DNA of 64,000 nt from Patescibacteria group bacterium (GCA_023380635.1 JAMCRP010000001.1:173305-237304), one strand, 5' to 3'; positions 5,623 through 64,000 are shown, numbered from the stretch's first letter. The notes: generated from the sequence alone by a model not told the origin. Numbers and translations are program-made.

Positions 5623-5639
5623 ACTTGTATTTTAGCAGA

Positions 5640-7759: not shown

Positions 7760-7797
7760 TATTTTCCATCGCTGCCCCCGATGTTCATATTTATTGC

Positions 7798-8685: not shown

Positions 8686-8687
8686 CT

Positions 8688-11070: not shown

Positions 11071-11091
11071 AAGTAGAGTTTAGCAGGAGAA

Positions 11092-39020: not shown

Positions 39021-39029
39021 CAGGTCCTG

Positions 39030-42093: not shown

Positions 42094-42108
42094 TAAAAAA
42101 ATTTAAAT

Positions 42109-45247: not shown

Positions 45248-45280
45248 TTATTATTTAATCCTGACTATACAAATTTACTT

Positions 45281-47408: not shown

Positions 47409-48190
47409 GTTAGGCGAACTAAACTACGTACACCGTTTAAAGGAACTATTTTTTGTTTATATCCAGGAAACAAAGACAAAAACCGTCTTAAAGATGCTTT
47501 CATTAAATCCGGGTGCACCTCACCTATAAGATAATCAGTACCATGCTTATTCTTAAATGAACGAAATACCTTATATTCTTCACCTTCAATATCAAACTTT
47601 ACAAGATCTATTTTCCTGATCCCAAGTTCTTTAACGATAGAATCAAGTGAACGACACTGGACATCAATACTCATCTGTTTAGGATATCTTTGAAAAAGTG
47701 AAGAAGACATACTACCGTCGCTAATGTATAACTTATTTGTTTGGTTAACATCGGACAAGGCGAAATTGTAGGCTTTCACTCCATCGAAAGACGCAATATT
47801 TCTCTTAAGGATTAAGTAGTTATCGGGGTTCGGCTCGAAACAGAATATTTTTGATTTCGGGTAAAGTAGTTTAAAGTATATAACTGATGTGCCGATATGA
47901 GAACCCAGGTCCAGAATAACGGGATTATTCTGATTTAGGCTTACTTTATAAGTCTCATTGATAAAAATGTCTTCTATGGCTACCGTATCAATATTGTCCC
48001 GGACCGTTAACACGAACTGAGTTCCAAACTTTTGAAATGATAGCTTAAATTGAGTATCGGGAAATATCCCCAGTTTTTGCCTTATCGGGGACCAGACAAA
48101 GATAATTAGCAATTTTATTCTTGTTAAATTATCTGCGGACAAGGAAAAAAGGTGAAACCTGAATAAATTTCTAATTGTAGTTAGTGTCAT
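47402..48190 (-). CDS. FkbM-family methyltransferase
   Basis: ILDLGSHIGTSVIYF...FEPNPDNY...KFDIEGEE. Confidence 0.75.
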   Translation of the reverse strand: MTLTTIRNLFRFHLFSLSADNLTRIKLLIIFVWSPIRQKLGIFPDTQFKLSFQKFGTQFVLTVRDNIDTVAIEDIFINETYKVSLNQNNPVILDLGSHIGTSVIYFKLLYPKSKIFCFEPNPDNYLILKRNIASFDGVKAYNFALSDVNQTNKLYISDGSMSSSLFQRYPKQMSIDVQCRSLDSIVKELGIRKIDLVKFDIEGEEYKVFRSFKNKHGTDYLIGEVHPDLMKASLRRFLSLFPGYKQKIVPLNGVRSLVRLTC

Positions 48191-49289: not shown

Positions 49290-50913
49290 CTATCCGCCAT
49301 TGATCCGTTACCCCCGGACGGGCGGAACATAAGCTATACTTTGACTTATATGCTGTCCCTAAATAGAACTCCTTGATTTTATCATTTAGTCCAAGATAAC
49401 GCCGGAGTTGTAAGGGGTGATTGTTTAAATCCACGTTAAGGCAGCTTCGGTTCGTATAAGCCGCTGTCAAATTGGCTTGCAAACTTTTCCAGCCCCGATC
49501 TTCAAGAAAGCCCCTGGTTGTTAGGGAAAAATTCCGCCTAAGATTAGCCAACGGGGGAGGATAAGTTTCTGTAAAGCGTTCACTAACTTTAAAACTAGTG
49601 TTAAAGAATGTAGAGCCGGTATAAATTGCTGAATAACAAATTAAAACAGCAAGCAATAGCCAAAATCTTTTGAAACTAAAAACCAGAGTTACAATTAACG
49701 GAACAGTTAAAAAATAAAGATAATAAACCCTTATACCGTTGGAGAGAAAAAAAGCCGTAGTTACAAATATTAACGTGAGAATAAATTTGTTTGGTTTCAA
49801 AACTAGACTTACAGCAAAGGCTAAAAACAGAATGAGCCCATACTGGTCAGTAAGAATCGACAAAAAATTATAAACATTCTGCAATGGTGAGAATTGCACC
49901 ATCGAAGCTCCTGGATTCGTTGGCGTGTGAAAGATCCTTGAAAAAAATATATCCATGTAACCTGTAGAAAGATAAGCGCCAAGATTGTAAACAATTACTG
50001 GAAGAAACATCAGTAAAAAAATTGTCAGAAACCTTGCCCGAAACTTGGTAAAAAGCAGAGCAACCGGAACAAAAATAACCGCCACTGCCTTTACTAACAT
50101 TGCTCCTCCCAAAAAAATTGAACTTAAAATAAGATACTCATTTTTCTTTGTTTTTAAATGCCGGGTATAGAAGTAAAGAAACAAAACTAGATAAAAACCT
50201 AAAAACATTTCCCGTTGGAAAATTCTGCTTAGAAAAACGTGATAATTGTTTACGGCTAACAAAAGTGCACCTAAAAATGCTAATTTTTGGTCTTCTGCAA
50301 TCTCTAAAATTAAATAATAAGTTACTCCAACAGTAATGACCCCTAACATTGCCGGGGCAGCACGATACATCCAGTCAGATAAAAGATCCAATCCATGTGG
50401 TTCTAGAATTTGCATAGTAAAGTGCTGGATATACATTGTTAAGGGTGGATGAGCTGAAAAAGATAAAACATACGCTTTCCTCCCGGCAAAAATACCGTCT
50501 ACAAGGTTATAAGCTTGATAACCGAGATCGTACTCATCACTATTTAAATCCGCACGGTTAAGCTGGTAAAAAGAAAAGAAAACCGAAACTAAAATTGGAA
50601 TAACTACTAGCCAGTTAATCTTTAAGTTCAGTTTGAGAGTCTCTTTCTTTTTAACGAAGAAAACTAACAACCAGGCTAAAAGATGTAAGCCAACAAGCAT
50701 CATCAGATCTCCTGACAAATGTGGACCAAAAATCGCTGCCGCACTCTGGCCCTCCCGTAAGACATTTAAAAATCCTGCCGGATAAGTCAAAAGAAGACTT
50801 AGACCAATAGAGCTGAAAATCCTTTCCGCCCAAGATTTGGGGTTATCTAAAAGTAAAAGACTTAACGGGTAGCCGGAAAATAAGTAAACAAAAAATAAAA
50901 GTATCGGTGTCAT
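49246..50913 (-). CDS. GT-C fold glycosyltransferase (PMT_2/ArnT-like)
   Basis: Polytopic, with NSDEYDLGYQ acidic motif. The start is set at ATG 50913-50911, which overlaps the upstream TGA (ATGA). Confidence 0.6.
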   Translation of the reverse strand: MTPILLFFVYLFSGYPLSLLLLDNPKSWAERIFSSIGLSLLLTYPAGFLNVLREGQSAAAIFGPHLSGDLMMLVGLHLLAWLLVFFVKKKETLKLNLKINWLVVIPILVSVFFSFYQLNRADLNSDEYDLGYQAYNLVDGIFAGRKAYVLSFSAHPPLTMYIQHFTMQILEPHGLDLLSDWMYRAAPAMLGVITVGVTYYLILEIAEDQKLAFLGALLLAVNNYHVFLSRIFQREMFLGFYLVLFLYFYTRHLKTKKNEYLILSSIFLGGAMLVKAVAVIFVPVALLFTKFRARFLTIFLLMFLPVIVYNLGAYLSTGYMDIFFSRIFHTPTNPGASMVQFSPLQNVYNFLSILTDQYGLILFLAFAVSLVLKPNKFILTLIFVTTAFFLSNGIRVYYLYFLTVPLIVTLVFSFKRFWLLLAVLICYSAIYTGSTFFNTSFKVSERFTETYPPPLANLRRNFSLTTRGFLEDRGWKSLQANLTAAYTNRSCLNVDLNNHPLQLRRYLGLNDKIKEFYLGTAYKSKYSLCSARPGVTDQWRIVVSDLSVNYERSNN

Positions 50914-51986: not shown

Positions 51987-53305
51987 TTGTTTTCTCCTTT
52001 TAGGGAAATTCTTCCTCCGGGATAGTAATAGATGGTCTTATACGACGGATTTATCTCGCTTGGGTCAAGAGTATAAATCACCGGCCGGTTGGCGTAATAG
52101 GAGGCAAACCAGCCGTCGAAGGGAACGCTGGGGTCAAAACTGACAACTTGCACTTTGTCCGTCGGCATTGTGTTGGCTCCGGCATATTCCCCAATCCTCG
52201 CGCTCTCGCGGTATAAACTGCTGTCTTCCAAGGCCATAATAAAATTCCAACGCGCGGCAATCATCACCACCACAAGCAAAGCGACAAGCCAATAAGGCCG
52301 GATAACCAGGGCCGTAGACAAGGCTAGAAAAGGCCAAAAATAGATCAGCAGATAATCATGTCGGGAAGCCGCGTCGCGAAAAACCAGGGGATAAATTACC
52401 GCGTACATCAAAAATAAGATAGTAATTCTATTTCTTTTCCAAACCAAGCCAATAGCAGCCAGAGGCACCAACAAAAAGTAATAAGCCCACGACCAGCTGG
52501 CCAAAGTTCTTACATACCAGACCATATTAACCCCGGATGTTCTTAACAGAAATATTTCCCGCAAGCCTCCGCCAAAAAAATCGTTGGTCACAAAGTGGTC
52601 ATGGAGTAAGTGGATGCCAAACAGGGCCGGGGCGGTAATAAAAAGCAGCAGATATTTTTTATTCCAGGATTTTGTCAAAAAAGCATGGAGGGCAATCGCC
52701 GGCACGAGGAAAAATCCCGGCCAGGTTAAAAGTTCAGCCGCGGTAATGGCCGCAAACATGGGCCAGAATTTTTTGTTCAGATAAAACCAGAAGGAGAGCA
52801 GAACAAAAAACATCAAAGGAATCTCGTGGACGGGCATTTTTCCAAAATAGATAAACATTGGAGTTACCAGCCAGAAAAAAGAAGCGATGATTGCCGTTTT
52901 TCGATCTAAGAATTTCTCGGCAATTTTATAAAAGACAGCTATTGCCCCCAGCGAGAAAACCATGGCCATCAGCCGCGAAACCCAGTTGGCTATCCCGAAG
53001 ACTTTAAAAAAGAGGGCCCACAACAAAGCGAAGGCAGGCAGGAAATGGAAATTATAATCGTATTCTAATAGGTTGTTTACCGGTCCCGCGTTGAGGGTCA
53101 TGGCGAAAGAGGTTTTAAACGGACCGTTGACAGCGAAATTTTTGGCCACCTGTCCCCAATACACCCCATTCCAGTCATGATGTCCCCAGAAAGGTTTATT
53201 GAGGTTGTAGCTTAGAATAAGCGTGGCTGTAAGAAGAATAATAAACAGCGGCGACCTTATCCCAGGAATAGTTTTTCTTAACAAATTCGTAACCGTTTTC
53301 ACCAT
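51983..53305 (-). CDS. polytopic membrane protein, GT-C-like
   Basis: About 11 TM, with GHHDWNGVYW after TM1. Confidence 0.5.
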   Translation of the reverse strand: MVKTVTNLLRKTIPGIRSPLFIILLTATLILSYNLNKPFWGHHDWNGVYWGQVAKNFAVNGPFKTSFAMTLNAGPVNNLLEYDYNFHFLPAFALLWALFFKVFGIANWVSRLMAMVFSLGAIAVFYKIAEKFLDRKTAIIASFFWLVTPMFIYFGKMPVHEIPLMFFVLLSFWFYLNKKFWPMFAAITAAELLTWPGFFLVPAIALHAFLTKSWNKKYLLLFITAPALFGIHLLHDHFVTNDFFGGGLREIFLLRTSGVNMVWYVRTLASWSWAYYFLLVPLAAIGLVWKRNRITILFLMYAVIYPLVFRDAASRHDYLLIYFWPFLALSTALVIRPYWLVALLVVVMIAARWNFIMALEDSSLYRESARIGEYAGANTMPTDKVQVVSFDPSVPFDGWFASYYANRPVIYTLDPSEINPSYKTIYYYPGGRISLKGENK

Positions 53306-54164
53306 AATTCTTCTTATCCTTAATTATAACCCGAATAGCGTCCGCCAACTGGACGGCATTCCCGGGCGCCACTATTAATCCACATTTTGCTGTCTCAATC
53401 AATTTTTTACAATCCCCGACATCAGTGGCCACTATGGGCAGCTTGCTGGCCATAGCTTCCAGAAGAACTATTGGCAGTCCTTCAGACAGTGACGGCAAGA
53501 CAAAAAGATCCGCCTGTTTGAAGCGTTGTATCTTCTCCCGGCCGTAAATCCCGTCGGCCAGATCCAGCTCAACTTTGGGATTATCAATCTTTTTAACGGC
53601 TTCCTCCAGAAATCTGACTCCTTTTACCGGATCGTATTTCCGCCCGATCCAAAATATCCTGAACTTAGCCGGGTCCTTCTTTGCTTTGACAGCATCGAAT
53701 TCTTTGATATTAATCCCATTGCTCACAGTCAAATAACCATCCAGGTTGCCAGCAGAAAAACGATAATCAAACGGCCAAACCCGAAGGACCAGCCATAACC
53801 ACAATCGGCCAATTCCCAGACTGTCCAGTAGTCCTCCGCCAACCATTTTTTTCCCCAGTCCGTGGACAGTAACCGCTGTTTTTTTGTCCCGCAATTTTAC
53901 AATCGGCAGAAAGGCACTTGTGGAAAAATTATGGCTATGATAAATATCGTAGTCAGAGGTAAATAAGAATCTTAAAACCCAAAAGGCGAACCAGACCCGG
54001 TGGAAAAAATTAGAAAACTTAAACTTTGGATTAATAAGCGTCGGGGCGATAATATCAACCTGATACTCATATTTTTCTTTCAGGATTTTTGCAACCTGCT
54101 TAACATGTTCCTGACCGCCGCCCCAAACCGGCAGCCAGGCATCGGTCAGCATGCAAATTTTCAT
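53196..54164 (-). CDS. GT4-like glycosyltransferase
   Basis: SEGLPIVLLEAMASKLPIV. Confidence 0.7.
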   Translation of the reverse strand: MKICMLTDAWLPVWGGGQEHVKQVAKILKEKYEYQVDIIAPTLINPKFKFSNFFHRVWFAFWVLRFLFTSDYDIYHSHNFSTSAFLPIVKLRDKKTAVTVHGLGKKMVGGGLLDSLGIGRLWLWLVLRVWPFDYRFSAGNLDGYLTVSNGINIKEFDAVKAKKDPAKFRIFWIGRKYDPVKGVRFLEEAVKKIDNPKVELDLADGIYGREKIQRFKQADLFVLPSLSEGLPIVLLEAMASKLPIVATDVGDCKKLIETAKCGLIVAPGNAVQLADAIRVIIKDKKNYGENGYEFVKKNYSWDKVAAVYYSSYSHAYSKLQPQ

Positions 54165-55294
54165 ATTTCTTTAGCGTATACCCGCAAAGTTTCTCCGGCG
54201 GCAGTTTCCAGAGTATTTGCGCCGGCAAACCGTGTGGCTCTTTCCTTTAATTTCTGGTATTTATTTTTATCTTTAACCAACTCTTCCAACTTATCAGCTA
54301 AGTCCCGCGGATCGCCGGTTTTAAAAAGCAGCCCAGCCTGGCTTTTTTGGGCGATTTCCTGATTAACGGGGATATCACTATTCACAAACGGCAAACCGCA
54401 GCCGGCCGCTTCCAGAGTTACGATTCCGAAGCCTTCAATGGCCGACGGCAAGCAAAAAATTTGGCTTTGCGCCATTTGTTTTAACACCTCTTCATGAGGA
54501 AGGTTTCCCAAAAACCGCACCTGGTTTTTGACCCCCAGGTTTTCTGCTAGTTTTTCCAGCTTACTCTTCTGTGGCCCGTCGCCAACAATTTTGTATGCCA
54601 AAATAATTCCCCGTTTTTTAAGTTCCGAAATTGCTTTAATAACCGTGTCGTTATGCTTATATCCGACCAGACGATTGACCGAGATTATCTCTTTTATTGG
54701 ATTCAATTTTTTGTTATTGGAAATTACTTCAATCCCAGGATAAATAACAGAAATCTTTGAAGCTTTTATCCCTTTTTTCTCCAGTTTTTCCCGGGTCATT
54801 TCACTTAGGGCAATGTAATTATCGGCCCTGATAGTAAAACCCAGCCATTCGTTAACAAAATTAACAGAACCATTTATCAAACCCAAGGCCTTAACCCAGC
54901 CCCGAAAGCCCAAAATATCCGGAACCCAATAGACCAATTTCTTTCTTTTCAATCTGGCAATTAAAAAAGAGGCCACATAAACTGCGGTGTTGTTGGCGTC
55001 AACTACCTCAAAATCAGTTTTGAGGCCGTTAGGAATTAAACTTAAAGCAAAAAGGAGTCGGGAAAGATCAGAACCGGATTGAACATAACTATATTTCGGG
55101 CCGATTCTTATAACTTTGATTCCGCTCCAATTATCGTTCCTGCCAGTTCCCGGTAAATTGGCCGTTAACACTGTTACCTCATGCCCGCTCTTTGCCAATT
55201 GTTTAGCCAGATAATAAGTCCGCGTTTCGCAGCCGCCGGTAATTTCGCCCCCGTCTTCAACCGGAAAAAACTCGGAAAGCAGAAGAATCTTCAT
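54161..55294 (-). CDS. GT4 glycosyltransferase
   Basis: MKILLLSEFFPVEDGGEITGG...IEGFGIVTLEAAGCGLPFV. Confidence 0.8.
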   Translation of the reverse strand: MKILLLSEFFPVEDGGEITGGCETRTYYLAKQLAKSGHEVTVLTANLPGTGRNDNWSGIKVIRIGPKYSYVQSGSDLSRLLFALSLIPNGLKTDFEVVDANNTAVYVASFLIARLKRKKLVYWVPDILGFRGWVKALGLINGSVNFVNEWLGFTIRADNYIALSEMTREKLEKKGIKASKISVIYPGIEVISNNKKLNPIKEIISVNRLVGYKHNDTVIKAISELKKRGIILAYKIVGDGPQKSKLEKLAENLGVKNQVRFLGNLPHEEVLKQMAQSQIFCLPSAIEGFGIVTLEAAGCGLPFVNSDIPVNQEIAQKSQAGLLFKTGDPRDLADKLEELVKDKNKYQKLKERATRFAGANTLETAAGETLRVYAKEI

Positions 55295-55298: not shown

Positions 55299-55625
55299 CT
55301 ATTTCTTGTCCTGAAGCGCGATCTTGCGAACCAGTTCCGTGATTTCGTGGCGAATATCTTCCATGAGAACGTATGCCCGGAACATGAGATAGAAAAGAGT
55401 AACTATCGACGCATAAACAATTAAGTCCACTCCCCGACCGATTCCCAAAAACTGGGCAAAGTGAGTAGTTTCGTTGGGAAAAACTACTACTGTGATCGCC
55501 CCGCTGAAAAGGATAGCCCAAAACCCAAATTCAGCCACCGACACCTTGTGGTCACGTAAACGGAGAAACACCCGGCTAAGGGCAAACAGCAGAGAGACGA
55601 TTAAGATGATCTGAATTATATTCAT
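55299..55625 (-). CDS. small 3-TM membrane protein associated with the DPM1-like GT2 (DUF2304-like or GtrA-like role inferred)
   Basis: 108 aa. Its ATG overlaps the GT2 TGA stop (ATGA). Confidence 0.45.
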   Translation of the reverse strand: MNIIQIILIVSLLFALSRVFLRLRDHKVSVAEFGFWAILFSGAITVVVFPNETTHFAQFLGIGRGVDLIVYASIVTLFYLMFRAYVLMEDIRHEITELVRKIALQDKK

Positions 55626-56299
55626 CGAAATAATCTTAAGAGCATGCCTTTGCCCACGCTTACAGCCTGCCAAAGCGACGGGTCGTTATGCGAATGGTTC
55701 TGGCTGTATTCAGTATAAATCGGTTTAATGGAAATTTCCTTTAACCTTAAATTATTGCGCCTGATTTCCATAAAAAACTCGTTGCTGACTTCCATTCTAT
55801 CAGTTTTAATGGCTATTTTTTCAATCGCTTGTCGGTTGAAAGCCCTAAGCCCAGAAGTCGTATCGGTTGTCCAGATGTGGTACAGCAGTAAAGTCGCAAG
55901 GTTGCTGGCATAATTGACTGCTGTCCGGGCCAACGGCATACCCCGGGGATTAATCAGCCGGCTGCCGATAACGACATCCGCTTGTTCGTTTTTAATTGGT
56001 AATATCAGCTTTTCCAAATCTTTAGCCTTATGTTGCCCGTCTCCATCGAAAGTAATCAATAATTCGTGGCCCTTGCGCCGGGCATACTCAAACCCGGTTC
56101 CCAGCGCCGCCCCCAGACCTCGGTTGACCACATGCCGCAAAACCGTTGCTTTTTTCTCCGCCGCAACCTTACTGGTCTGATCCGTGGAGCCATCGTCTAC
56201 AACCAGAATATCTCTATAACCATAAGATTGGAGATCACCAATCACTTCGCCAATTTTCTTTTCTTCATTATGAGCCGGAACCACAATTAAAGTTTTCAT
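55622..56299 (-). CDS. GT2 polyprenyl-phosphate sugar synthase (DPM1/GtrB-like)
   Basis: LIVVPAHNEEKKIGEVI...ILVVDDGSTDQT...ITFDGDGQH. A soluble GT2 of the dolichyl-P-mannose synthase type. Confidence 0.75.
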   Translation of the reverse strand: MKTLIVVPAHNEEKKIGEVIGDLQSYGYRDILVVDDGSTDQTSKVAAEKKATVLRHVVNRGLGAALGTGFEYARRKGHELLITFDGDGQHKAKDLEKLILPIKNEQADVVIGSRLINPRGMPLARTAVNYASNLATLLLYHIWTTDTTSGLRAFNRQAIEKIAIKTDRMEVSNEFFMEIRRNNLRLKEISIKPIYTEYSQNHSHNDPSLWQAVSVGKGMLLRLFR

Positions 56300-57336
56300 C
56301 AGCTAACCCAATAGCCACGGGTAAAAAGCGCGGTAAGTATCCCCAATAGTACAACAAAAAAAGACAAAATTGCCAGCTTAAGGCGGGTATTTTTTATTGC
56401 AGCCAGGCCGATATAGATCGGAAAAATTGTTAACAGGTATCGTGGCATGGAAGAAAGCGTCCCCGAAAACGATGGTAATAAAAAGGCCGCCCAGGAGAAA
56501 ATTGCCCAGGAAACGGGTATTTTCCTTCGCGCGGATAACCAAAACAGGACTGCGGCTCCAAAAAGAAAAGCAACGAATTCCAGACCGGCGATCCAATAAT
56601 CATAATGGGCGGGGTTGGCCGTAAAAAATATTTTCAAATAGCGAAACAGGACCTGTAAAGGATTAACGAGGGTTGAAAACGAGTCCGCGCGGCCGTTTTG
56701 GAAAGCACTTTGGGCTGATAGGAAAAACAGCGGTTTCCCAAAGCGAATTCCCAGGTACAATGAATATGCCGCCAATCCCAACCAGGCAAACGGATGGAGA
56801 AAAGATCCGACCAGCCGCGTCGCCCCGGCGGGGATGCTGAAAAATTTTGAATAGGAATAGGTCAGCAAAACCAGGAGGAGAAAAAACGATTCCGTATAGA
56901 TTGCGCCGAAGAAAAATGATGTCGGGAAAGCAAACAAAAAAGCCACCGCCCATTTATTTTTTGTGAGGCTATACAACACTATGGCTGCCAAAAGAATCGA
57001 AAGATTGGAAATGAGCAGACCGGCAACAAGAGGATTTAGAAAATTGGAGAAGAGGTTCATCAGCATCGGGTATAAAGGAAAAAAGACTTGAGTCCCAAAA
57101 CCGTCATAGCCGTTTTTCGCCAGCATAAGGTAATGGACACCATCAAAACTCCCCCACTGCCACAGCCACTGTGGCAGCCCGCTGCCTTTAAGAATGGTAT
57201 CAAAATAAGGAAAGCTGCCTTTAAATGGCAAATACCTTATCCCCAGGTACTCAAAAAACAGCAAACCAAACCGCCAAACTGCAAATATGACAAGAATAAA
57301 GGCATTATCACGCCAGAATTTTTTCATAGACTTCAT
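56299..57336 (-). CDS. GT-C mannosyltransferase-like membrane protein (PIG-V/GT76-like; family unverified)
   Basis: WGSFDGVHYLMLAKNGY...FFPLYP resembles Mannosyl_trans2. Polytopic. Start is uncertain because the longer ORF overlaps the upstream GT4. Confidence 0.45.
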   Translation of the reverse strand: MKSMKKFWRDNAFILVIFAVWRFGLLFFEYLGIRYLPFKGSFPYFDTILKGSGLPQWLWQWGSFDGVHYLMLAKNGYDGFGTQVFFPLYPMLMNLFSNFLNPLVAGLLISNLSILLAAIVLYSLTKNKWAVAFLFAFPTSFFFGAIYTESFFLLLVLLTYSYSKFFSIPAGATRLVGSFLHPFAWLGLAAYSLYLGIRFGKPLFFLSAQSAFQNGRADSFSTLVNPLQVLFRYLKIFFTANPAHYDYWIAGLEFVAFLFGAAVLFWLSARRKIPVSWAIFSWAAFLLPSFSGTLSSMPRYLLTIFPIYIGLAAIKNTRLKLAILSFFVVLLGILTALFTRGYWVS

Positions 57337-58264
57337 AGGTTTGTTTTGCCGTTTTCGTCCAGGAAAACTTGGCCGCCTGAGCCAACTCTTTTCCAGATGG
57401 TTTAACCGCAACTATCTTATCAGCCATATCGTCAACATCTGTTACATCAGTATAGGTAGCCGCGTCGCCGGCAATTTCCGGCAGACTGCCATTTTTACCG
57501 CAAATGACCGGTGTCCCGCAGGCCATCGCTTCCAGAACCGGCAGTCCAAAACCCTCATAGATTGACGGTTGAACATAGACTTTTGCCCGGTTATAAAGTT
57601 TAACCAGCTCTGAAGTTTCCACAAATCCCCTGGCGATGACATTTTTACCGTCAATAAAAGACTGTACTTCTTTCAATGACCGGGCTTCGATATTGTTTCC
57701 CGCCGTCTGGGTAAACTCCTTTCCTACCAGCACGAGAGGAATATTAACCTTCCGGCAGGCCTCTACCAGAGGAACAACATTTTTATTCCAATTGCCACCG
57801 CCAACGTAAAGAACAAAGTTTTCTCTTTTTATTTTTAGCGGTTTAAAGGCTTCATCGGGGGCTAGATAAGTTACTTGTGACTGTAAACCTATTATTTGTT
57901 GAATATCTTTTTTCGAGCAAACAGAATCTGTGAGGATAGCGTCTACTTTACTTAAAAGAAACCGTTGCCAAGGCCAAACGATCTTTGCCCGCAACCCAAA
58001 TGGATAATGCTCAGGAAATTTTAGAGGGGTTACATCATGCAGTGTCACCACCGTTTTAGCAGTAGTAATTGGTGAAAGCGTCGGCCAGGAAAAATCAAAA
58101 TAGGGATAATGGACAATGTCAAATCCTGTAGTGGGTACATACGGTACATCAATCCAACGAACATCAACCAAAGGTTGCAAAGCTTCAAAGAGCCGCTTGG
58201 CATAAAAGCCAACACCCCTCACGGAGTGCCCCACTATCGGAGGTTTTACCATGGCAACTCTCAT
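57308..58264 (-). CDS. GT4 glycosyltransferase
   Basis: EGFGLPVLEAMACGTPVI. Confidence 0.8.
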   Translation of the reverse strand: MRVAMVKPPIVGHSVRGVGFYAKRLFEALQPLVDVRWIDVPYVPTTGFDIVHYPYFDFSWPTLSPITTAKTVVTLHDVTPLKFPEHYPFGLRAKIVWPWQRFLLSKVDAILTDSVCSKKDIQQIIGLQSQVTYLAPDEAFKPLKIKRENFVLYVGGGNWNKNVVPLVEACRKVNIPLVLVGKEFTQTAGNNIEARSLKEVQSFIDGKNVIARGFVETSELVKLYNRAKVYVQPSIYEGFGLPVLEAMACGTPVICGKNGSLPEIAGDAATYTDVTDVDDMADKIVAVKPSGKELAQAAKFSWTKTAKQTYEVYEKILA

Positions 58265-59013
58265 ATCTTTTTTTCTATGCTTTTAAAATATGCTACGGGA
58301 AATAGTAACGCCTGAAACAGGGCCCAAACAAAACCTGGAAAACCGTCAAGAAAACCCAGGTGGCGAAAATACACAATTACAAACCCCTGCAAAGGGTCAA
58401 AGAGGGGCCGCCAGAAAAGATATTGGAACCAGCCGCCGTTAACTTCTTTTGCCATAATGTCTGAATACCGGTTAAAGCGCCGGTCCAGATAGACGCCAAA
58501 AGTCGGGTTATTGTAGTGGAGCAAATCATTTTTCAAGTAGCCTGTTTTTCCTTCAACCACTGCTTGTTCATGAACGCTTTTTGCCGGAAGATTACCCTTA
58601 CCCCGGCGGTATAATCGCATAGTATAGTCTGGGTAAGTTCCGCCTTTTTTTAAAAAACGGCCGAGGAAAAAATTTGCCCGGGGAATCCAGAAACCGTTTT
58701 CTTCCGGGATACTCTCAAGAGTATCTGCAATTTCCTTCTTCAGCGCCGGACTGACGACTTCATCGGCATCCAGTTGCAAAATCCATTCGCCGGTGGCCGC
58801 GTCATTGGCCATTCTTTTGTTAATGTGGAAATTAGGCTTGTTAGTAGTGGATATTACTTTAGCTTTATATTTTTTAGCGATTTCGACTGTTCTATCCAGA
58901 GATTTTCCATCTGCAATTACGATTTCATCAGCGATGTCCTTTACTGAATCCAGACAACGGGGCAAAAATTTTTCCTCATTAAAAGTGGCCAAGGTGACCG
59001 AAAGTTTAGTCAT
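58261..59013 (-). CDS. GT2 glycosyltransferase
   Basis: LSVTLATFNEEKFLPRCLDSV...LQLDADEVV. Confidence 0.75.
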   Translation of the reverse strand: MTKLSVTLATFNEEKFLPRCLDSVKDIADEIVIADGKSLDRTVEIAKKYKAKVISTTNKPNFHINKRMANDAATGEWILQLDADEVVSPALKKEIADTLESIPEENGFWIPRANFFLGRFLKKGGTYPDYTMRLYRRGKGNLPAKSVHEQAVVEGKTGYLKNDLLHYNNPTFGVYLDRRFNRYSDIMAKEVNGGWFQYLFWRPLFDPLQGFVIVYFRHLGFLDGFPGFVWALFQALLFPVAYFKSIEKKI

Positions 59014-59014
59014 A

Positions 59015-59746
59015 CTAGTCAGCGAAGCGGTATTTAAAAATACACCAAAGAGCCTGCGTTCCGTCTTTAAAAGTATTAAATTTTTTTCCCTGGTCGAAGC
59101 TGCGAGGTTTGGTAGTAATTGCTACTTCCCTAATTTTAAAACCACTTTTTAACAGTTTAGCCGTAACTTCCGGTTCCATCTCAAAACCATTCGCCTTTAA
59201 ATTAATCTTTTTTATGGCTTCCCGGGGAATTAATTTATACCCGGTTTCCATATCGGTTAACCAGGTACCGTAGAGAAGACTATTGACTAAACTGAATACC
59301 CTATTGGCAAAATAATGCATCACCAGGACCGTTCGGTGTCTACCGAAAAGCACCGGAGGAGAAGTTAATCGCGAACCATAAACTACTGTCCCGGGAAATT
59401 TTTCCGCTTTAGCCAAAAGCCGCGGAATTTGCTCCGGATCGTACTCTAAATCGGCATCCTGAATAATGGCGTAATCTCCGGTGACTTTAGAAAATCCGGT
59501 TCGCACTGCCGCGCCTTTCCCCTGATTCGCCTCGTGTTCAAAATATTTAACTTCAGGGTGTTTTTTGGCGAACGCTTGGATAATTTTTCCGGAATTGTCT
59601 TTAGAAGCATCATTAACCACAATAATTTCTTTTTTCCACGGCAACTTAACCGCTACCACCTTTTGCAGAATTGATTTTAGCGTTGCTTCTTCGTTGTAGA
59701 CCGGCATCACTATCGATAATCTTGTCATATGCCTTTCCTCCACCAA
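59015..59746 (-). CDS. GT2 polyprenyl-phosphate sugar synthase (DPM1/GtrB-like)
   Basis: LSIVMPVYNEEATL...IIVVNDASKDNS...IIQDADLEYDPEQIP. Confidence 0.8.
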   Translation of the reverse strand: MVEERHMTRLSIVMPVYNEEATLKSILQKVVAVKLPWKKEIIVVNDASKDNSGKIIQAFAKKHPEVKYFEHEANQGKGAAVRTGFSKVTGDYAIIQDADLEYDPEQIPRLLAKAEKFPGTVVYGSRLTSPPVLFGRHRTVLVMHYFANRVFSLVNSLLYGTWLTDMETGYKLIPREAIKKINLKANGFEMEPEVTAKLLKSGFKIREVAITTKPRSFDQGKKFNTFKDGTQALWCIFKYRFAD

Positions 59747-61221
59747 TTCTGGACATCGTCATATACAGCCAACACCGAAAAGGGATACCAGCCATTTTGT
59801 TTGGTAAGTAAATTCCAATTTTCAGAGAGGTCCACAACACTGAATTCCTGCCCTTGAAATTCACCTTTGGCCGACTCAGTGGCATTAGCTAGTCCGCAAT
59901 TTTCGCTGGAGTAAAGGCAAATCCCTACCGGGCGGCCAAAATCGCTTTCGTCACCCGACGCTTCCAAAGCCAAGGAAAAAGAATAGCTCACATTTGAAGT
60001 GGCTAAGCCTTTGCCGTAAACCGCCAGCTTCTCACCGGGAAATTTTTTCTCCAACTGATCTCTCACAATCGCAAGCCTCTGGAAATTATTGTTATAATTC
60101 ATAGTATCTTTTGAAAAATAAAGACCAGAAACGATAAGAGAAAATGAAGCTAGAAGACCCAAGATCTTGTTAATTCGCAAAATTTGATTCAATACCCAGC
60201 CTACCAGAAGAATCAAACCGGCATGAAAATAGATCAGGTATCCGTCCAGCCGCTCGCTGCGAAGATAGCGTAGCCAGATAATTTGGATTCCGATAGCTGC
60301 AAGGAAATACAAAAATGTTAAGGAAACTTTTCTGCGGATGACGGAAACAGATATAACCACAAGGGACGACAAACCGAATAACATTCCGGCAACAAACGGT
60401 CCGCCGGCAATTTTTCCCAAAAACGTCGGCCAGAATGATCCCACATACAATAGCCAGCGGTCGCTAACCCAGAAACGATATTGTCCTACCCGAAAGTAAT
60501 AGATCAATTGTTCAAGATTGCGGAAATTTCGACTGGAATCCCACAAAAGCATGGGCCAAAGAAGAAGAACCAATCCCAACCCACTCGCAACGGCGAATTT
60601 AAACGCGGACTTAATATCTCGAATTTTGACGAAAAACATAATCGGGAAATATACCAACAGGTAAACTCCCTGATAGTGCAAGGATACAGCAGCTCCCGCA
60701 CCCAAGCCGGTCAAAAAGACAAAGCGCATTTTGCCGGATTTTAGATATGCCAGGAAACCAACCAGAGCAACGGCAGCGCAAATTTCCACTAATCCATGTT
60801 GTGTCAGATAGGATGATATGCCAATAACTGCCGGCGACACAGCCGCAATTAAAGCGGCTATTAAGCCTAACCTTTTTCCGCCCAGGATTTTTCCCGCCAA
60901 GGCTAATAGCCAAACAAAACCGAGCGAAATTACAAGCATGAACAACCATGGGGAAAGAAAAACATTAGGCAACAGAATGATTGGGAGCATCAAAAACCAA
61001 TACCAATTTGGTCCAAAAACGAATGGCCCGGCAGAGCTGAAAGAACCCACCCAAGGAAGCTGGTTAAGTTTGATCGCTCCGCGCGCCACTAGTAAATCTC
61101 TGGCGGTATCGCTGCTAAATAGGAAACGCAAATCAAAACCGCGTAACCTGATAACAAAAGCAAGAAGTAGAATTATCGCCAGTATTAACTGGTATCTATC
61201 AATTTTTAACCTTTGCCGCAT
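59725..61221 (-). CDS. GT-C-like polytopic membrane protein
   Basis: About 12 TM, with FSSDTARDL after TM1. Confidence 0.5.
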   Translation of the reverse strand: MRQRLKIDRYQLILAIILLLAFVIRLRGFDLRFLFSSDTARDLLVARGAIKLNQLPWVGSFSSAGPFVFGPNWYWFLMLPIILLPNVFLSPWLFMLVISLGFVWLLALAGKILGGKRLGLIAALIAAVSPAVIGISSYLTQHGLVEICAAVALVGFLAYLKSGKMRFVFLTGLGAGAAVSLHYQGVYLLVYFPIMFFVKIRDIKSAFKFAVASGLGLVLLLWPMLLWDSSRNFRNLEQLIYYFRVGQYRFWVSDRWLLYVGSFWPTFLGKIAGGPFVAGMLFGLSSLVVISVSVIRRKVSLTFLYFLAAIGIQIIWLRYLRSERLDGYLIYFHAGLILLVGWVLNQILRINKILGLLASFSLIVSGLYFSKDTMNYNNNFQRLAIVRDQLEKKFPGEKLAVYGKGLATSNVSYSFSLALEASGDESDFGRPVGICLYSSENCGLANATESAKGEFQGQEFSVVDLSENWNLLTKQNGWYPFSVLAVYDDVQNWWRKGI

Positions 61222-62854
61222 ATCCGCTCCTGAATAACAGTAAGATTATACAGGCAAAGGAGATCAAAGATAAACTGTCTGCCGCTCTATCAAGAGGTGT
61301 TTCTTCAAGCCGAAGCGAATAGGATCCGGGCTTCGGTCCGGATAACAGCATTAAGCCTGTGTCGTCGAATTTCAAGTCCTTCTGGGTCGTAATGACATTC
61401 CAATCTTTCCCTTTGGCCAGATTAAATCCATTATATTTAATTGTTGTTTGCGGAAAATAAAAACGATTGACGCGCAGAATTGCGGATCCGCTCGTGTTAT
61501 CTACTCGCCAATTCAAGCCCGAAGCATTTTCGCTTACTTCGGAAATACTCCCGTCGCCATAGAGAAAATCAAACCGGCTTGGCCGACCGGGCATCCGCAT
61601 GTTTACGCGCCAAACCGGAACATATTCATCACTGGTTGCTGTCGCTGTGCCTATATAACCAGAGAAAGTTTTATCCGAGTAGTTTAGTGGCTGGTTAATC
61701 CTAATGTGATTACGGTTTGCAATAAAAACTATTAGTAACAGCACGATTGCTAATAATTTCTGCCAGCGAAAATTGGCCACCAGATAAGCACCAAAAAACG
61801 CAAAAGAGATGGTTGTTATTCCGAGAAACCTCCAGGGAAAATCAACAATTGTTTTAATAATCGGAAGAATCTGCCAGATGTTACGAATAATCGGTGATTC
61901 TGTCATCAAAAAGACACTGGCGGCTAAAACCAAAAAGAAAAACAAAACCTCTTTTTCAAATTTACGCCGGATCATAATCAGTCCGCCGGTCAATATTGCT
62001 ACCATGATCTGTGTCAAGCCCAACTGAAAAGACATTTCGTCTCTAATTGTTCCCGGAAAATCAAAACCGTAACCCCAGGGACTGCGGATAAGCTGCCAGA
62101 AAGCCACGAAGTGGTCCCGAAAATATGTCATGTTCTGATCGAAATGAATAAATTGACGTTCGAAAAGATCAGGAACATAGATAAAAGCGCTGAGAGCAAA
62201 CGCTAAAGCGGTGGACAAAATAAAACGGCGAAAACTACGATGCAGTAACGCCCAACCCAGAAAGAGCGGCAGGGTCAATGCCGCTACCTCATTCTGGGAT
62301 AATAAGACGGCAGCCAACAATACCGCGGTGACTGTCCACCATTTTTTCTCGATACTCCAAAACACCAGCGGGACAAAACCATATGCCAGGTTCTCGGCCA
62401 AAGCTGCCCGGACATAAACATTGAGAAAATGGTACGGCACCCACATGTAAAAAACAGCGCCTACCAGAGCCCCCGTAGTTTTGAACTTATTTCTTAGCCA
62501 AAGAAAACAACTTAATCCGGAAAGGACGAAGCCCGCAGCCATCACCATGCGAAAGCTATTTTGATAGGAAATTGCCGCCATGTGAAGCAAGGCGCCAAGC
62601 AAATATGGAAGCGGGTAACTATAGACAAAAATCGGAGAGCCAAAATTGGAATTAAAATTAGTTGCCCATCTTGGAGGAAATTGGCCATCACTCAGATCTT
62701 GAAAATAGGCAGCAATCCTGGCAGTATGGGTAAAACCATCATGAGAGGTATAGAAAGGATTAGAGATAAGCGACCAAAGACCAATCACGCTGAAAATCGC
62801 AAGTATTATTAGAGCAAGAAGATTAGCTCTGTTTTTTTTGAAAAATCGGTGCAT
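61199..62854 (-). CDS. GT-C-like polytopic membrane protein (possibly YfhO-like)
   Basis: FYTSHDGFTHTARIAAYFQ...PPRW N-terminal loop, then many TM segments. Start set at MHRFF (62854). Confidence 0.5.
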   Translation of the reverse strand: MHRFFKKNRANLLALIILAIFSVIGLWSLISNPFYTSHDGFTHTARIAAYFQDLSDGQFPPRWATNFNSNFGSPIFVYSYPLPYLLGALLHMAAISYQNSFRMVMAAGFVLSGLSCFLWLRNKFKTTGALVGAVFYMWVPYHFLNVYVRAALAENLAYGFVPLVFWSIEKKWWTVTAVLLAAVLLSQNEVAALTLPLFLGWALLHRSFRRFILSTALAFALSAFIYVPDLFERQFIHFDQNMTYFRDHFVAFWQLIRSPWGYGFDFPGTIRDEMSFQLGLTQIMVAILTGGLIMIRRKFEKEVLFFFLVLAASVFLMTESPIIRNIWQILPIIKTIVDFPWRFLGITTISFAFFGAYLVANFRWQKLLAIVLLLIVFIANRNHIRINQPLNYSDKTFSGYIGTATATSDEYVPVWRVNMRMPGRPSRFDFLYGDGSISEVSENASGLNWRVDNTSGSAILRVNRFYFPQTTIKYNGFNLAKGKDWNVITTQKDLKFDDTGLMLLSGPKPGSYSLRLEETPLDRAADSLSLISFACIILLLFRSGYAAKVKN

Positions 62855-63572
62855 GGTAAATTCCCCACGAATTAAATATAAAGAGCGCGGCTTCCCAACA
62901 GCTTTCCCAGCCAAACTTCATTCCCCGCCAGACATTAATGGTATGTTGCTGATCGTGGTATCTGGTCGGAATCGGAATCTCTCCGATTTGCAAACCGGCG
63001 GCAATGGCTGAAAAAGTGAATTGCTGGTCAAAGGCATAATCATTGGAAAATCTTTGAAACGGAACAGTTTCCAGGGCTTTGCGGCTGTAGGCCCGCAGGC
63101 CACTCATATATTCAGAAAGGTTTTCGCCGGTAATGATGTTGGCAAAAAAGGTATACAAGCGGTTAAAAAAATATTTGTATTTGGGCATTCCACCAGTCAA
63201 TGCCATTCCCCGGTTTTTAATCCGGCTGCCAAACATTATGTCGTAATCTCCGTTAATAATCGGGTCGACCAGCCCCTTGATTTTTGAGCCATCATACTGA
63301 TAATCCGGGTGCAGCATGACGACTACATCGGGACCATCTTTTAAGGCTTCCCAATAGCAAGTCTTCTGGTTACCGCCATAGCCGAGATTATTCGGATGGC
63401 GAAAAACTGTTAATCCCAATTGTTCTGCTACCTCTGCCGTCTTGTCTTTGCTTGCGTCATCAACCAAAATAATTTTATCCACAACCCCGACAGGAATTTC
63501 TTTTATTGTTTTTTCGATTGTTTTCTCGGCAAAAAATGCCGGCAGAACGACAATAATTTTTGATTTTTTCAT
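62823..63572 (-). CDS. GT2 polyprenyl-phosphate sugar synthase (DPM1/GtrB-like)
   Basis: IIVVLPAFFAEKTIEKTI...IILVDDASKDKT...DYDIMFGSR. Confidence 0.75.
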   Translation of the reverse strand: MKKSKIIVVLPAFFAEKTIEKTIKEIPVGVVDKIILVDDASKDKTAEVAEQLGLTVFRHPNNLGYGGNQKTCYWEALKDGPDVVVMLHPDYQYDGSKIKGLVDPIINGDYDIMFGSRIKNRGMALTGGMPKYKYFFNRLYTFFANIITGENLSEYMSGLRAYSRKALETVPFQRFSNDYAFDQQFTFSAIAAGLQIGEIPIPTRYHDQQHTINVWRGMKFGWESCWEAALFIFNSWGIYHAPIFQKKQS

Positions 63573-64000
63573 GGTTCGATTTTATATAATTTCAGGGAGT
63601 CTTTTCCATAGCCATCAAAGTACTGGGCTATCAGGCGTACCTTCCATCCGGCCGGAGCCGCGGGCCGCTGATAAACAATAAAGTAATCCAGGCCAGCGGG
63701 TAAAATTTCCGGTGCCGGCCAATACGGTTTAATCGTTAAATTCGGATGGTCCTTTTGATAAAGTTCCAAAGCATAGGGCATTAGACCAAAGGTTCCTTCC
63801 ACTCCGACAGTAGTGTTCTTACCCGCAAAAAAGCTATTTATTTCGCGAAGCCCCCAGCCGGCTGACCAACTGTTAAGATATTGTGCCGAATCGGTATCGG
63901 CAATTGGCGCCTGGACCGGATCGGTTAAAAGTTTATAGTTGGTATATATGGGTAATATCAAGGCAAGGATTAAAACCACTGGGGCCAGTTTTTTAAATTC
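63569..64000 (-). CDS. hypothetical protein with N-terminal hydrophobic anchor; 5' end probably beyond the window
   Basis: The frame stays open to the window edge (EFKKLAPVVLILALILPIY...). Pro/Trp/Tyr-rich and possibly exported. No domain recognised. Confidence 0.4.
   Translation of the reverse strand, partial: EFKKLAPVVLILALILPIYTNYKLLTDPVQAPIADTDSAQYLNSWSAGWGLREINSFFAGKNTTVGVEGTFGLMPYALELYQKDHPNLTIKPYWPAPEILPAGLDYFIVYQRPAAPAGWKVRLIAQYFDGYGKDSLKLYKIEP

Follow-up and report, generated by a model that had tools for sequence, protein, structure and literature searches.

The closest described relatives of the locus analysed here are GacI/GacJ/GacK/GacL of Streptococcus pyogenes and EpaI/EpaJ of Enterococcus (addition of GlcNAc side chains to rhamnan), PpgS (Rv3631)/Rv3632/Rv3779 of Mycobacterium tuberculosis (GalN substituent of arabinogalactan), CsbB/GtcA/YfhO of Bacillus and Listeria together with GtrB/GtrA/GtrX, the lipid A aminoarabinose system ArnC/ArnE-ArnF/ArnT, and DPM1(-DPM2/3) with PIG-V (GT76) as well as mycobacterial Ppm1 with PimE/Mpt. 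In the M. tuberculosis pathway, an epimerase step supplies UDP-GalNAc. Proteins of the GacJ/Rv3632 family (DUF2304) form complexes with the synthase and stimulate it kinetically, and flipping is attributed to other proteins (10.1101/180810, PMC3485146). So far, DUF2304 has been characterised only alongside polyprenyl-phosphate-sugar synthases, and DUF2304-GT2 fusions exist (10.1101/180810).

The window studied here (the whole stretch of DNA that was analysed, 64,000 nucleotides long) comes from a tiny uncultured Patescibacteria/CPR bacterium of the Microgenomates type. The span at positions 55299-63572 (NCBI MAG proteins MCL4397648-54) is a slice of a glycan locus of about 52 kb (at least 55 kb on the contig), and the whole locus is a very large cell-surface or envelope-glycan gene cluster. 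It holds at least 31 glycosyltransferase genes in total and at least 11 GT-C genes, most of them matching PMT/PMT_2, yet only 3 genes for DPM1-like synthases; the remainder comprises Bac_transf, Wzy_C, two Wzx, 15 GT4 genes and sugar-nucleotide enzymes. All genes of the span lie on the minus strand (Table 1), including a GT2 gene (GT2c) and a GT4 gene that the original prediction had omitted.

Table 1. Features of the span and its surroundings, in window positions.
Feature	Position	Strand	Evidence
Further GT-C gene, 3' end (472 aa, PMT/PMT_2; PF02366/PF13231)	63569-64000	-	profile match; full gene at window 64987-63569, starting outside the window
GT2a, TM-less GT2 of the polyprenyl-phosphate glycosyltransferase class	62823-63572	-	PF00535 1e-20
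GT-C of the YfhO/PTPS_related type, 551 aa	61199-62854	-	PF10131 45.5 bits (cut-off 26.4)
GTC_498, GT-C with ArnT/PMT_2-like fold, 498 aa, C-terminal alpha/beta domain	59725-61221	-	predicted fold, homologues
GT2b, TM-less DPM1-like GT2	59015-59728	-	PF00535 7e-36
GT2c, GT2 of another type, not DPM1-like	58261-59013	-	Pfam and NCBIfam matches, N-terminal part only
GT4, GT-B fold, cytoplasmic	57308-58264	-	PF00534 6e-29
PIG-V-like small GT-C, 345 aa	56299-57336	-	PF04188 matches of homologues, predicted fold
GT2d, PpgS/GacI-like TM-less putative polyprenyl-phosphate sugar synthase	55622-56299	-	NCBIfam PpgS 2e-43
DUF2304 three-TM protein, GacJ/Rv3632 family	55299-55625	-	PF10066 85.5 bits (cut-off 25.5); 3 TM; ATGA with GT2d
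Two GT4 genes, end of conserved core block	53196-55294	-	profile match and synteny
Wzx-type (MOP) flippase gene, candidate	43994-45247	-	PF01943 6e-16
Second Wzx-type flippase gene, candidate	30838-32052	-	PF01943 4e-18

The system is of a known kind, here in an unstudied lineage, and we hold with a probability of about three in four that the span is the lipid-linked-monosaccharide branch of the locus, working as follows. At the cytoplasmic face, GT2a, GT2b and GT2d would charge polyprenyl (undecaprenyl) phosphate with a sugar taken from a nucleotide sugar, and GT2d would do this while complexed with the DUF2304 membrane protein, in the manner of GacI/GacJ and PpgS/Rv3632. The polyprenyl-phosphate sugars would then be flipped by a protein encoded outside the region, with the window's two Wzx-type genes or a gene elsewhere in the genome as candidates. 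The GT-Cs, of which there are a YfhO-like, an ArnT-like, a PIG-V-like and, nearby, many PMT_2-type ones, would pass them to an extracytoplasmic acceptor, most likely the glycan for whose assembly the rest of the locus has phosphoglycosyltransferase, GT4, Wzx and Wzy genes. The families and folds, the operon-like coupling and the conserved synteny are what the analysis shows; from these we infer the enzymatic activities, the pairing of synthases with GT-Cs, and which sugars, acceptor and flippase take part.

Three soluble GT2 proteins with a likeness to dolichyl-phosphate-mannose synthases had been predicted, and this description holds. GT2a, GT2b and GT2d have no predicted TM segments, are paralogues that resemble one another along their entire length, and find their best matches among the polyprenyl-phosphate glycosyltransferases PpgS, AglJ, Pyrococcus DPMS and ArnC, with full-length NCBIfam matches to PpgS, AglJ and Dol-P-hexose transferase. 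The four other GT2 proteins of the window, an internal control, show no such full-length relatedness, and only 3 of the 7 resemble the polyprenyl-phosphate glycosyltransferase class over their full length. The gene coordinates, the ATGA overlap and each of the four motifs that had been cited are real, and minus-strand translations show GDYDIMFGSR in GT2a, AIIQDADLEYDPEQIP in GT2b (ORF 59015-59746), LLITFDGDGQH in GT2d and WGSFDGVHYL...FFPLYP in the PIG-V-like protein. GT2b itself begins with the ATG at 59728, which is preceded by GGAGG.

The DxDxQ and GSR motifs align to PfDPMS, and GSR is present in all three proteins. DGDGQ of GT2d keeps the DxD, as does QDADLEY of GT2b (DADLE, Gln replaced by Glu), while GT2a has HPDYQY where DxDxQ is expected, its first Asp of DxD replaced by His in a form that is invariant in 20 orthologues. 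GT2d matches AglJ (3e-33) and, with DxDxQ aligned, DPMS 5mlz (1.6e-10); GT2b matches AglJ over its full length (3e-28) and, among PDB entries, ArnC (8e-18), DPMS (9e-15) and GtrB (2e-11). For GT2a, the top NCBIfam matches are AglJ, PpgS and Dol-P-hexose transferase (1e-17 to 1e-14), and the sole PDB match, again Pyrococcus DPMS 5mlz, is weak (3e-4 alone, 1.9e-7 with a family profile); this match and the HPDYQY motif were counted against the best explanation. No sugar specificity can be assigned because all NCBIfam matches fall far under equivalog cut-offs: even GT2d against its best model, PpgS NF058614, scores 148 bits against a cut-off of 370 and is not an equivalog. Profile matches and PDB sequence matches support placing the three in the DPM1/PpgS/GtrB class, and most likely they load sugars onto a membrane lipid.

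It seems quite improbable that they are instead ordinary nucleotide-sugar-dependent transferases acting on a growing lipid-PP-linked glycan, next to GT-C genes through dense packing only. Such a view could draw on the matches under equivalog cut-offs, the breadth of AglJ-type models, the atypical HPD motif of GT2a and a locus of at least 31 glycosyltransferase genes in which neighbours are glycosyltransferases by default, but it sits poorly with a full-length class likeness confined to 3 of 7 GT2s, with the DUF2304 partner of GT2d (a family so far characterised only with polyprenyl-phosphate-sugar synthases), with GT2a-YfhO-like and GT2d-DUF2304 pairs that are kept across species, and with the ArnF-like genes in the same block of relatives.

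Gene order shows operon-like coupling. Every junction from GT2a to the DUF2304 gene is overlapping or 1 nt apart: GT2a and the gene after it share 32 nt, the GTC_498 and GT2b genes have an ATGA in common, the PIG-V-like gene and GT2d overlap by 1 nt, and the stop of GT2d and the start of the small 3-TM gene again share an ATGA. Each of the three synthase genes adjoins a gene for a multi-pass membrane protein. At the other end, the ORF at 63569-63979, which the original prediction had likewise omitted, is the 3' part of the 472-aa GT-C gene, and the source contig carries another two PMT-type GT-C genes upstream of that one.

The small protein coupled to GT2d, correctly foreseen as a three-TM protein, had been called flippase-like and turns out to be DUF2304, a member of the synthase-stimulating GacJ/Rv3632 family; its gene lies directly 3' of GT2d in 34 of the 34 loci where it was detected. 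By analogy, we presume that it is the membrane partner and activator of GT2d. A role as the flippase is not supported, and we consider it very improbable: three TM segments, the ATGA coupling, a faint NCBIfam match (20 bits, E 3e-4) with a model for DMT transporters and a region devoid of any other flippase would speak for it, but GacJ/Rv3632 proteins complex with and stimulate their synthase with flipping ascribed to others (10.1101/180810, PMC3485146), DUF2304-GT2 fusions occur, and 11 related loci hold an ArnF-like gene in addition to DUF2304. No ORF for a GtrA-type or ArnE/F-type flippase is present in the region or the 64-kb window, an observation also counted against the best explanation. 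By analogy with GacK, the two Wzx-type genes may be candidates for flipping the lipid-linked sugars.

Each synthase gene adjoins or overlaps genes for GT-C-like membrane proteins, as had been proposed: PF10131 is matched above its cut-off by the gene overlapping GT2a, and Foldseek places GTC_498 and the PIG-V-like protein among GT-C folds. The three membrane neighbours are thus supported as GT-Cs of differing families, YfhO/PTPS_related, ArnT/PMT_2-like and PIG-V-like, and most likely they move lipid-linked sugars onto the cell surface. GT2a followed by the YfhO/PTPS_related GT-C recurs as a pair in many loci. Of the five Pfam families suggested for the region, DUF2304 scored above its cut-off and YfhO (PF09586) was matched by the L008 orthologue of the YfhO/PTPS_related GT-C; PMT_2 (PF13231) stayed under its cut-off for GTC_498 (20.5 against 26.1 bits), Mannosyl_trans2 gave no match with the PIG-V-like protein of the window, and no GtrA-like ORF is present in the window. 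Homologues of GTC_498 at 27-32% identity do carry PF13231, and one is annotated as GT39. The AF2 model of GTC_498 (pLDDT 91.6) resembles ArnT 5ezm/5f15 (TMq 0.62-0.63, E 1e-6), ALG12 (0.62), Pmt4, AglB and PglB in Foldseek searches, and an Asp in external loop 1 (D42) is invariant. GTC_498 is therefore ArnT-like in its predicted fold, with a membership in the ArnT/PMT_2 family that is only transitive. That neither GTC_498 nor the PIG-V-like protein passes Pfam thresholds on its own was counted against the best explanation.

The same chemistry could serve protein acceptors, with the GT-Cs as PMT/ArnT-like O-glycosyltransferases on surface proteins of an episymbiont (pilins, S-layer, adhesins) rather than on a polysaccharide. 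We regard this as unlikely. The PMT/PMT_2 matches of most GT-Cs in the locus, the GT39 annotation and the resemblance of GTC_498 to Pmt4, PglB and AglB as well as ArnT would fit it, as would the best solved relatives of GT2c, GmaR (2e-16) and then SunS, which are protein or peptide glycosyltransferases. On the other hand, the PMT_2 model is generic for GT-Cs and takes in ArnT-type modifiers of lipids and glycans too, the cluster contains no gene for a candidate acceptor protein, and with Bac_transf, Wzy_C, two Wzx and 15 GT4 genes the locus is fully equipped for a Wzx/Wzy-type polysaccharide.

The proposed PIG-V (GT76) likeness stands for the family and fails for the window protein itself, which has no NCBIfam match and no Pfam match, including PF04188, even at E<=10. 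Of 56 homologues, 37 match PF04188 with 25-35 bits, solely at profile positions ~4-207 of 443, a likeness confined to the generic N-terminal GT-C core, and some family members match GT87/PimE. The AF2 model (pLDDT 95) shows a minimal GT-C that lacks any soluble domain for acceptor binding; its top 13 Foldseek matches are all GT-C, with probabilities up to 1.0, weak E-values (4.7e-3) and TMq ~0.43. Among its matches are STT3, ALG9, EmbC, AglB, ALG3, ArnT and PimE, that to PimE being weak (rank 50, E 2.1). Asp65 in the first external loop (FDGVHY) is invariant. This evidence partly supports a GT-C of a Patescibacteria-wide family closest to PIG-V/PF04188, with the PIG-V label applying at the family level only.

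Across Microgenomates-type genomes, the conserved unit is GT2c-GT4-PIG-V-like-GT2d-DUF2304-GT4-GT4, and the arrangement is not due to chance: dozens of genomes at the species level have their genes in this order too. The PIG-V-like gene is followed by GT2d in 44 of 59 species loci, a figure that rises to 51 of 59 when any DPM1-like GT2 is counted, but its tightest syntenic partners are the GT4, upstream in 57 of 62 loci and its most constant neighbour, and GT2c, conserved two genes upstream (55 of 62). Related loci have an extra gene between the PIG-V-like gene and the DPM1-like GT2. In 11 of them it codes for a small membrane protein of ArnF/ArnE-like type, and in 23 for a GalE-like 4-epimerase immediately 5' of the GT2d-type gene (not adjacent in the window itself); both are accessory genes that a lipid-linked sugar system needs. 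Both this closeness to GT4 and GT2c and one natural fusion (P0153) of the non-DPM1 GT2c to a GTC_498-type GT-C were counted against the best explanation.

The three repeats of synthase, flippase and GT-C envisaged by the original prediction are not supported as a clean series: the tightest partners of the PIG-V-like gene are GT4 and GT2c, and adjacency does not define synthase/GT-C pairs because 3 synthases face at least 11 GT-C genes. What survives of the three-component system are GT2 synthases at the sequence level, GT-Cs with an external-loop Asp (D65, D42) and conserved linkage, and no GtrA/ArnF-like gene accompanies them in the window.

The core block might alternatively make a membrane-anchored glycolipid or lipoglycan comparable to mycobacterial PIM/LM or the GPI core, with GT4s starting on a lipid inside and the PIG-V-like GT-C extending it outside with the sugar from GT2d/DUF2304. 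The linkage of the PIG-V-like gene to cytoplasmic GT4 and GT2 genes, its nearest Pfam model, the GT87/PimE matches of some members and the minimal fold without a soluble acceptor-binding domain agree with this idea, which we nevertheless find improbable given the generic nature of the PF04188 likeness, the weak PimE match and a window in which no inositol- or phospholipid-related gene was seen; Patescibacteria also generally lack lipid synthesis. Improbable, too, is a conserved two-stage glycoconjugate line of Microgenomates-type Patescibacteria like the ER dolichol/GPI or mycobacterial PIM/LM pathways, in which cytoplasmic GT4/GT2 steps would precede at least 11 GT-Cs fed by three lipid-linked donors around a core of the minimal 345-aa PIG-V-related GT-C extending a membrane-anchored glycolipid. 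If true, this GT-C would represent a relative, in bacteria, of the step catalysed by the GPI mannosyltransferase.

Returning to our preferred reading of a lipid-linked-monosaccharide branch, it resembles the known systems in some points and differs from them in others. DPM1/PIG-V and Ppm1/PimE/Mpt share a TM-less DPM1-type synthase relying on small membrane partners, one lipid-linked donor for many GT-Cs and PIG-V as nearest Pfam model; unlike them, the protein here is 345 aa long where the PF04188 profile has 443 positions, resembles that profile in the N-terminal core only, and a GPI or PI acceptor is without support. ArnC structures are the best PDB relatives of GT2b, ArnT is the nearest match for the GTC_498 model (TM 0.62) and related loci have genes for small membrane proteins that are ArnF/ArnE-like, but ArnA/B/D genes and, in the window, an ArnF-like gene are absent, and the Patescibacteria lineage has no lipid A. 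As in the CsbB and GtrB systems, a GT2 polyprenyl-phosphate-sugar synthase forms a pair with a YfhO-type GT-C, here GT2a with the overlapping PF10131/YfhO-like gene, whereas CsbB and GtrB carry C-terminal TM helices that GT2a lacks, GT2a has HPDYQY in place of DxDxQ, and the window has no GtrA/GtcA gene. From the PpgS system the locus differs in the 148 bits of GT2d against a cut-off of 370, the non-adjacent epimerase of the window and a GT-C of another family; in common are PpgS as the top NCBIfam model of GT2d (2e-43), a co-transcribed DUF2304-type small membrane gene, a GT-C that would use the product, and the GalE-like epimerase upstream of GT2d-type genes in related loci, which resembles the M. 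tuberculosis epimerase step. Compared to Gac/Epa, the adjacent GT-C here is small and PIG-V-like rather than of the GacL type, the lineage is Patescibacteria, the Wzx genes lie 10-25 kb away with a role only as candidates, and two further synthase paralogues have no DUF2304 partner; alike are the Wzx-type genes in a locus without a GtrA-type flippase, a GT-C in the same locus, and a TM-less GT2 followed directly by its DUF2304 three-TM partner.

From about 11.6 kb onward, every gene of the window lies on the minus strand, and from GT2a through the small membrane-protein gene neighbouring genes overlap or sit 1 nt apart at every junction (see table). The original prediction had read this span as three tandem modules of a DPM1-like synthase, a small flippase-like protein and a GT-C transferase, and the observations underneath it are confirmed: all four peptide strings that it quoted were found in the translations, the small protein has the claimed 3 predicted transmembrane segments whereas none is predicted in the GT4 or in any of the four GT2 proteins, and GT2d and the small gene share the described ATGA overlap. 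A second ATGA overlap was found at the GTC_498/GT2b junction, and the true start of GT2b is likely ATG 59728 with an upstream GGAGG rather than TTG 59746.

Genes of the flagged span and selected other genes of the surrounding glycan locus (window positions)
Feature	Position	Strand	Length
GT-C gene, 3' end, start beyond window	63569-64000	-	partial
GT2a	63572-62823	-	249 aa
GT-C, YfhO/PTPS_related type	62854-61199	-	551 aa
GTC_498 (GT-C)	61221-59725	-	498 aa
GT2b	59728-59015	-	237 aa
GT2c	59013-58261	-	250 aa
GT4	58264-57308	-	318 aa
PIG-V-like protein	57336-56299	-	345 aa
GT2d	56299-55622	-	225 aa
Small membrane protein (DUF2304)	55625-55299	-	108 aa
Protein without Pfam/NCBIfam match	35427-36776	-	449 aa
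Protein without Pfam/NCBIfam match	33309-34718	-	469 aa
Protein without Pfam/NCBIfam match	23198-24376	-	392 aa
Wzy_C/PMT_2 fusion	18409-21510	-	1033 aa

The DPM1-type signature proposed for three of the GT2 proteins held up well. GT2a, GT2b and GT2d all match PF00535 in Pfam and, over their full length, NCBIfam models of polyprenyl- or dolichyl-phosphate glycosylating enzymes (GT2d: PpgS 2e-43, AglJ 3e-33; GT2b: AglJ 3e-28, ArnC 1e-20; GT2a: AglJ and PpgS, each about 1e-17). Since none of these matches reaches an equivalog cut-off, the transferred sugars cannot be named. Their best solved relatives are the Pyrococcus dolichol-phosphate mannose synthase (DPMS), ArnC and GtrB, and the match of GT2a to DPMS improves to 1.9e-7 with a family profile. 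The MDADLQH motif of DPMS aligns with FDGDGQH in GT2d and LHPDYQY in GT2a, the corresponding region of GT2b contains QDADLEY, and all three keep the GSR motif. In GT2a, residues 88-93 (HPDYQY, invariant in 20 orthologues) carry a histidine in place of the first aspartate of the DxDxQ found there in DPMS-type enzymes. As an internal control, GT2c and three other GT2 proteins of the window resemble this trio only in the N-terminal nucleotide-binding part, with best matches to EpsD, MftF-like proteins, GmaR and SunS, and these four were therefore rejected as lipid-sugar synthases. That GT2a, GT2b and GT2d might themselves be something other than lipid-sugar synthases has to be set against their full-length matches and solved relatives, and beside the substitution in GT2a; we consider it very unlikely. 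Pairwise identities of only 22-30% over about 220 residues rule out a recent tandem duplication and mark the three, as judged by sequence, as old paralogues.

The neighbouring membrane proteins are GT-C enzymes, as had been proposed. The 551-aa protein matches PF10131 above threshold, and an orthologue from a different genome hits YfhO. GTC_498 scores 20.5 bits to PMT_2, which is under threshold, and homologues at 27-32% identity pass that threshold, one of them being annotated as GT39; its AlphaFold model (pLDDT 91.6) superposes on ArnT (TMq 0.62-0.63, E 1e-6) and also on ALG12, AglB, Pmt4 and PglB. For the 345-aa protein, the likeness to PIG-V stands for the family but not for the window protein, which has no Pfam or NCBIfam match, even at E<=10 or with a longer TTG start, and whose family profile (A1) found only noise among PDB sequences. 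Among 56 sampled family members, PF04188 (PIG-V) is hit by 37, PMT_2 by eight and GT87 by five; the alignments to PF04188 score 25-35 bits and are confined to profile positions ~4-207 of 443. The top Foldseek matches of its model (pLDDT 95) are all GT-C enzymes (STT3, ALG9, EmbC, AglB, ALG3 and ArnT), at modest scores (best E 4.7e-3, TMq ~0.43). GT-C enzymes are defined by an acidic motif in the first external loop (PMC6801728), and it is there that the family has an invariant aspartate, D65 of FDGVHY. On these sequence comparisons, "PIG-V-like" is a fair description at the family level, and membership in GT76 would go beyond the evidence. The public gene call of this protein (321 aa, TTG 57264, minus strand) leaves little of the first transmembrane helix; a start at ATG 57336 (or 57327) is favoured by homologues aligning over all 345 aa.

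The PIG-V-like family is large (1,320 matches in a protein search; at least 428 species genomes), and its gene neighbourhoods were compared using homologue look-ups and a survey that took a single genome from each species, analysed by tblastn. The nearest relatives belong to Microgenomates, Gottesmanbacteria, Curtissbacteria, Woesebacteria and WWE3, and the compared loci show a conserved block of GT2c, GT4, PIG-V-like gene, an optional insert, GT2d, DUF2304, GT4 and GT4. Where enough upstream sequence was available, the PIG-V-like gene is preceded by GT4 in 57 and by GT2c in 55 of 62 loci; among the 59 loci with enough downstream sequence, it is followed by a GT2d-type gene in 44 and by any DPM1-like GT2 in 51, and DUF2304 is detectable in 34, each time immediately downstream of GT2d. 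Another recurrent pair is GT2a with the YfhO-like GT-C behind it; GT2b is more mobile. The insert between the PIG-V-like and GT2d-type genes (e.g., locus L005, 8155-8523; locus L029, between 7116 and 8099) is an ArnF/ArnE-like membrane protein of 122-138 aa in 11 loci (NCBIfam ArnF 4e-13), a GalE-like 4-epimerase in 23 loci and a 10-TM DMT transporter in 2 loci. The window has no insert at this position, and its GalE-like genes lie elsewhere (27475-28395 and 45281-46288, plus strand). These inserts support reading the conserved block as a lipid-linked-sugar system, and the GalE-like ones give a hint, no more, that the GT2d sugar is 4-epimerised, e.g., Gal or GalNAc. Many of the loci, including L010-L017, come from TPA_asm MAGs labelled "uncultured Gammaproteobacteria" or "uncultured Pseudomonadales" that carry the Patescibacteria-type locus at 45-59% identity, and these taxonomic labels look wrong.

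The small protein, which the original prediction took for flippase-like, turned out to be a DUF2304 protein (85.5 bits against a Pfam cut-off of 25.5), a family that includes GacJ of S. pyogenes, EpaJ and Rv3632 of M. tuberculosis. The GT2 enzyme GacI co-purifies with GacJ, in whose presence its Km for undecaprenyl phosphate falls from 18.7 to 1.1 µM, PpgS is stimulated by Rv3632, DUF2304-GT2 fusions exist in some bacteria, and flipping is credited to the Wzx-type GacK (10.1101/180810; PMC8035078; PMC3485146). By analogy with these systems, where GacJ and Rv3632 act on the synthase, the window protein is more aptly seen as a membrane partner to its synthase. A DUF2304 flippase would account for this step within the window, where neither an ArnF- nor a GtrA-like ORF was found, but runs against the work on GacJ and Rv3632, and the ArnF/ArnE-like inserts point to a separate flippase candidate in relatives; of all alternatives weighed here, it is the least probable.

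The claim of three synthase/GT-C modules side by side did not survive a view of the whole glycan locus, which runs uninterrupted over ~52 kb of the window (11631-64000, minus strand) and at least 55 kb on the contig, continuing to about 67.3 kb (source contig L001, 1-3265; sequence beyond the window was read from Logan contig SRR10278331_18262, 67,332 bp long, which includes the window). Its glycosyltransferase genes number at least 31; the window contains 15 of GT4, 7 of GT2 and at least 9 of GT-C type. Directly upstream of GT2a lie three further PMT/PMT_2 GT-C genes, and downstream of the flagged span follow two GT4, a PMT_2 GT-C, a GT4, a PMT GT-C, and onward. Strict one-to-one pairing was rejected on the ratio of 3 lipid-sugar synthases to at least 11 GT-C genes on the contig, on varying gene order (GT2b moves) and on a natural fusion, P0153 (L089, 8001-10289; GCA_964616095.1), which joins a GT2c-type domain (57% identical to window 58261-59013) to a GTC_498-type GT-C (29% to 59725-61221) after five tandem GT-C genes. 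This fusion also warns that GT2c, besides the DPM1-like enzymes, may work with GT-C. It is probable that several transferases draw on each lipid-linked donor, as is the case for Dol-P-Man and polyprenyl-P-Man.

The locus further encodes DUF4012, a Bac_transf phosphoglycosyltransferase (the initiating enzyme), two Wzx proteins, methyltransferases, an acetyltransferase, FnlA/B/C-like and GalE-like sugar-nucleotide enzymes, and a fusion of a Wzy_C O-antigen ligase/polymerase domain (residues 227-446) with a PMT_2 GT-C (641-777). No intergenic gap of the locus exceeds 120 nt, and a search of the window found no small GtrA-like ORFs; the only gaps of the window lie at positions 7.4-9.2 kb and are occupied by FtsL- and MraZ-like ORFs. 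We propose that GT2a, GT2b and GT2d/DUF2304 would make polyprenyl-P-sugars on the cytoplasmic side, that some further protein would flip them, and that the GT-C enzymes would transfer the sugars onto an extracytoplasmic acceptor, most likely the polysaccharide built by the rest of the locus. Proteins as acceptors, to be weighed with the superpositions on Pmt4, AglB and PglB on one side and the Wzx, Wzy_C and initiating genes on the other, are unlikely, if the most credible alternative; a glycolipid or lipoglycan as acceptor is less likely again.

Several features of this region deserve mention in their own right. The segment at ~38000-50000 has a G+C content of 0.36-0.39 against 0.43-0.47 elsewhere, contains FnlA/FnlB/FnlC-like genes (39030-42093), a Wzx gene, GT4 genes and methyltransferases, and may belong to a variable portion of the locus or have been acquired horizontally. 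Of the three proteins lacking domain matches, that of 469 aa is weakly similar to adjoining PMT_2 GT-C proteins and that of 392 aa shares 28% identity with a 485-aa protein whose gene separates the PIG-V-like gene from GT2d in loci L007/L014. Directly abutting the locus, window 1-11616 is an ordinary cell-wall/division (mur/dcw) cluster (MurB C-terminus, three Mur ligases, racemase, NUDIX, class B PBP, FtsL-like, MraW, MraZ-like) with a class II aminoacyl-tRNA synthetase and RecO. The locus takes up a large share of the genome, which is probably ~1 Mb.

Patescibacteria are ultrasmall epibionts whose surface likely mediates host attachment, and we know of no experimental work on their envelope glycans; a literature search on Patescibacteria and GT-C found no paper. 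Given its ~52 kb, its at least 31 glycosyltransferase genes and a core retained by many Microgenomates-type species, the locus is probably responsible for a major surface structure. It offers testable parts in the GacI/GacJ-like synthase pair, the minimal PIG-V-like GT-C and the YfhO-like pair, and better names for NCBI proteins from a 559-kb contig of this "Patescibacteria group bacterium" MAG that are now "hypothetical protein" (MCL4397654), "glycosyltransferase family 2 protein" (MCL4397649) or "DUF2304 family protein" (MCL4397648). Systems of the same kind are already known as GacIJKL, PpgS/Rv3632/Rv3779, CsbB/YfhO, ArnC/ArnT and Gtr, and their mechanism is firmly documented for Firmicutes, Actinobacteria and Gram-negative bacteria, so that finding it here will not surprise the specialist. 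The novelty lies in the lineage, in a minimal PIG-V-related GT-C being paired with a GacI/GacJ-like synthase, and in how large the locus is.
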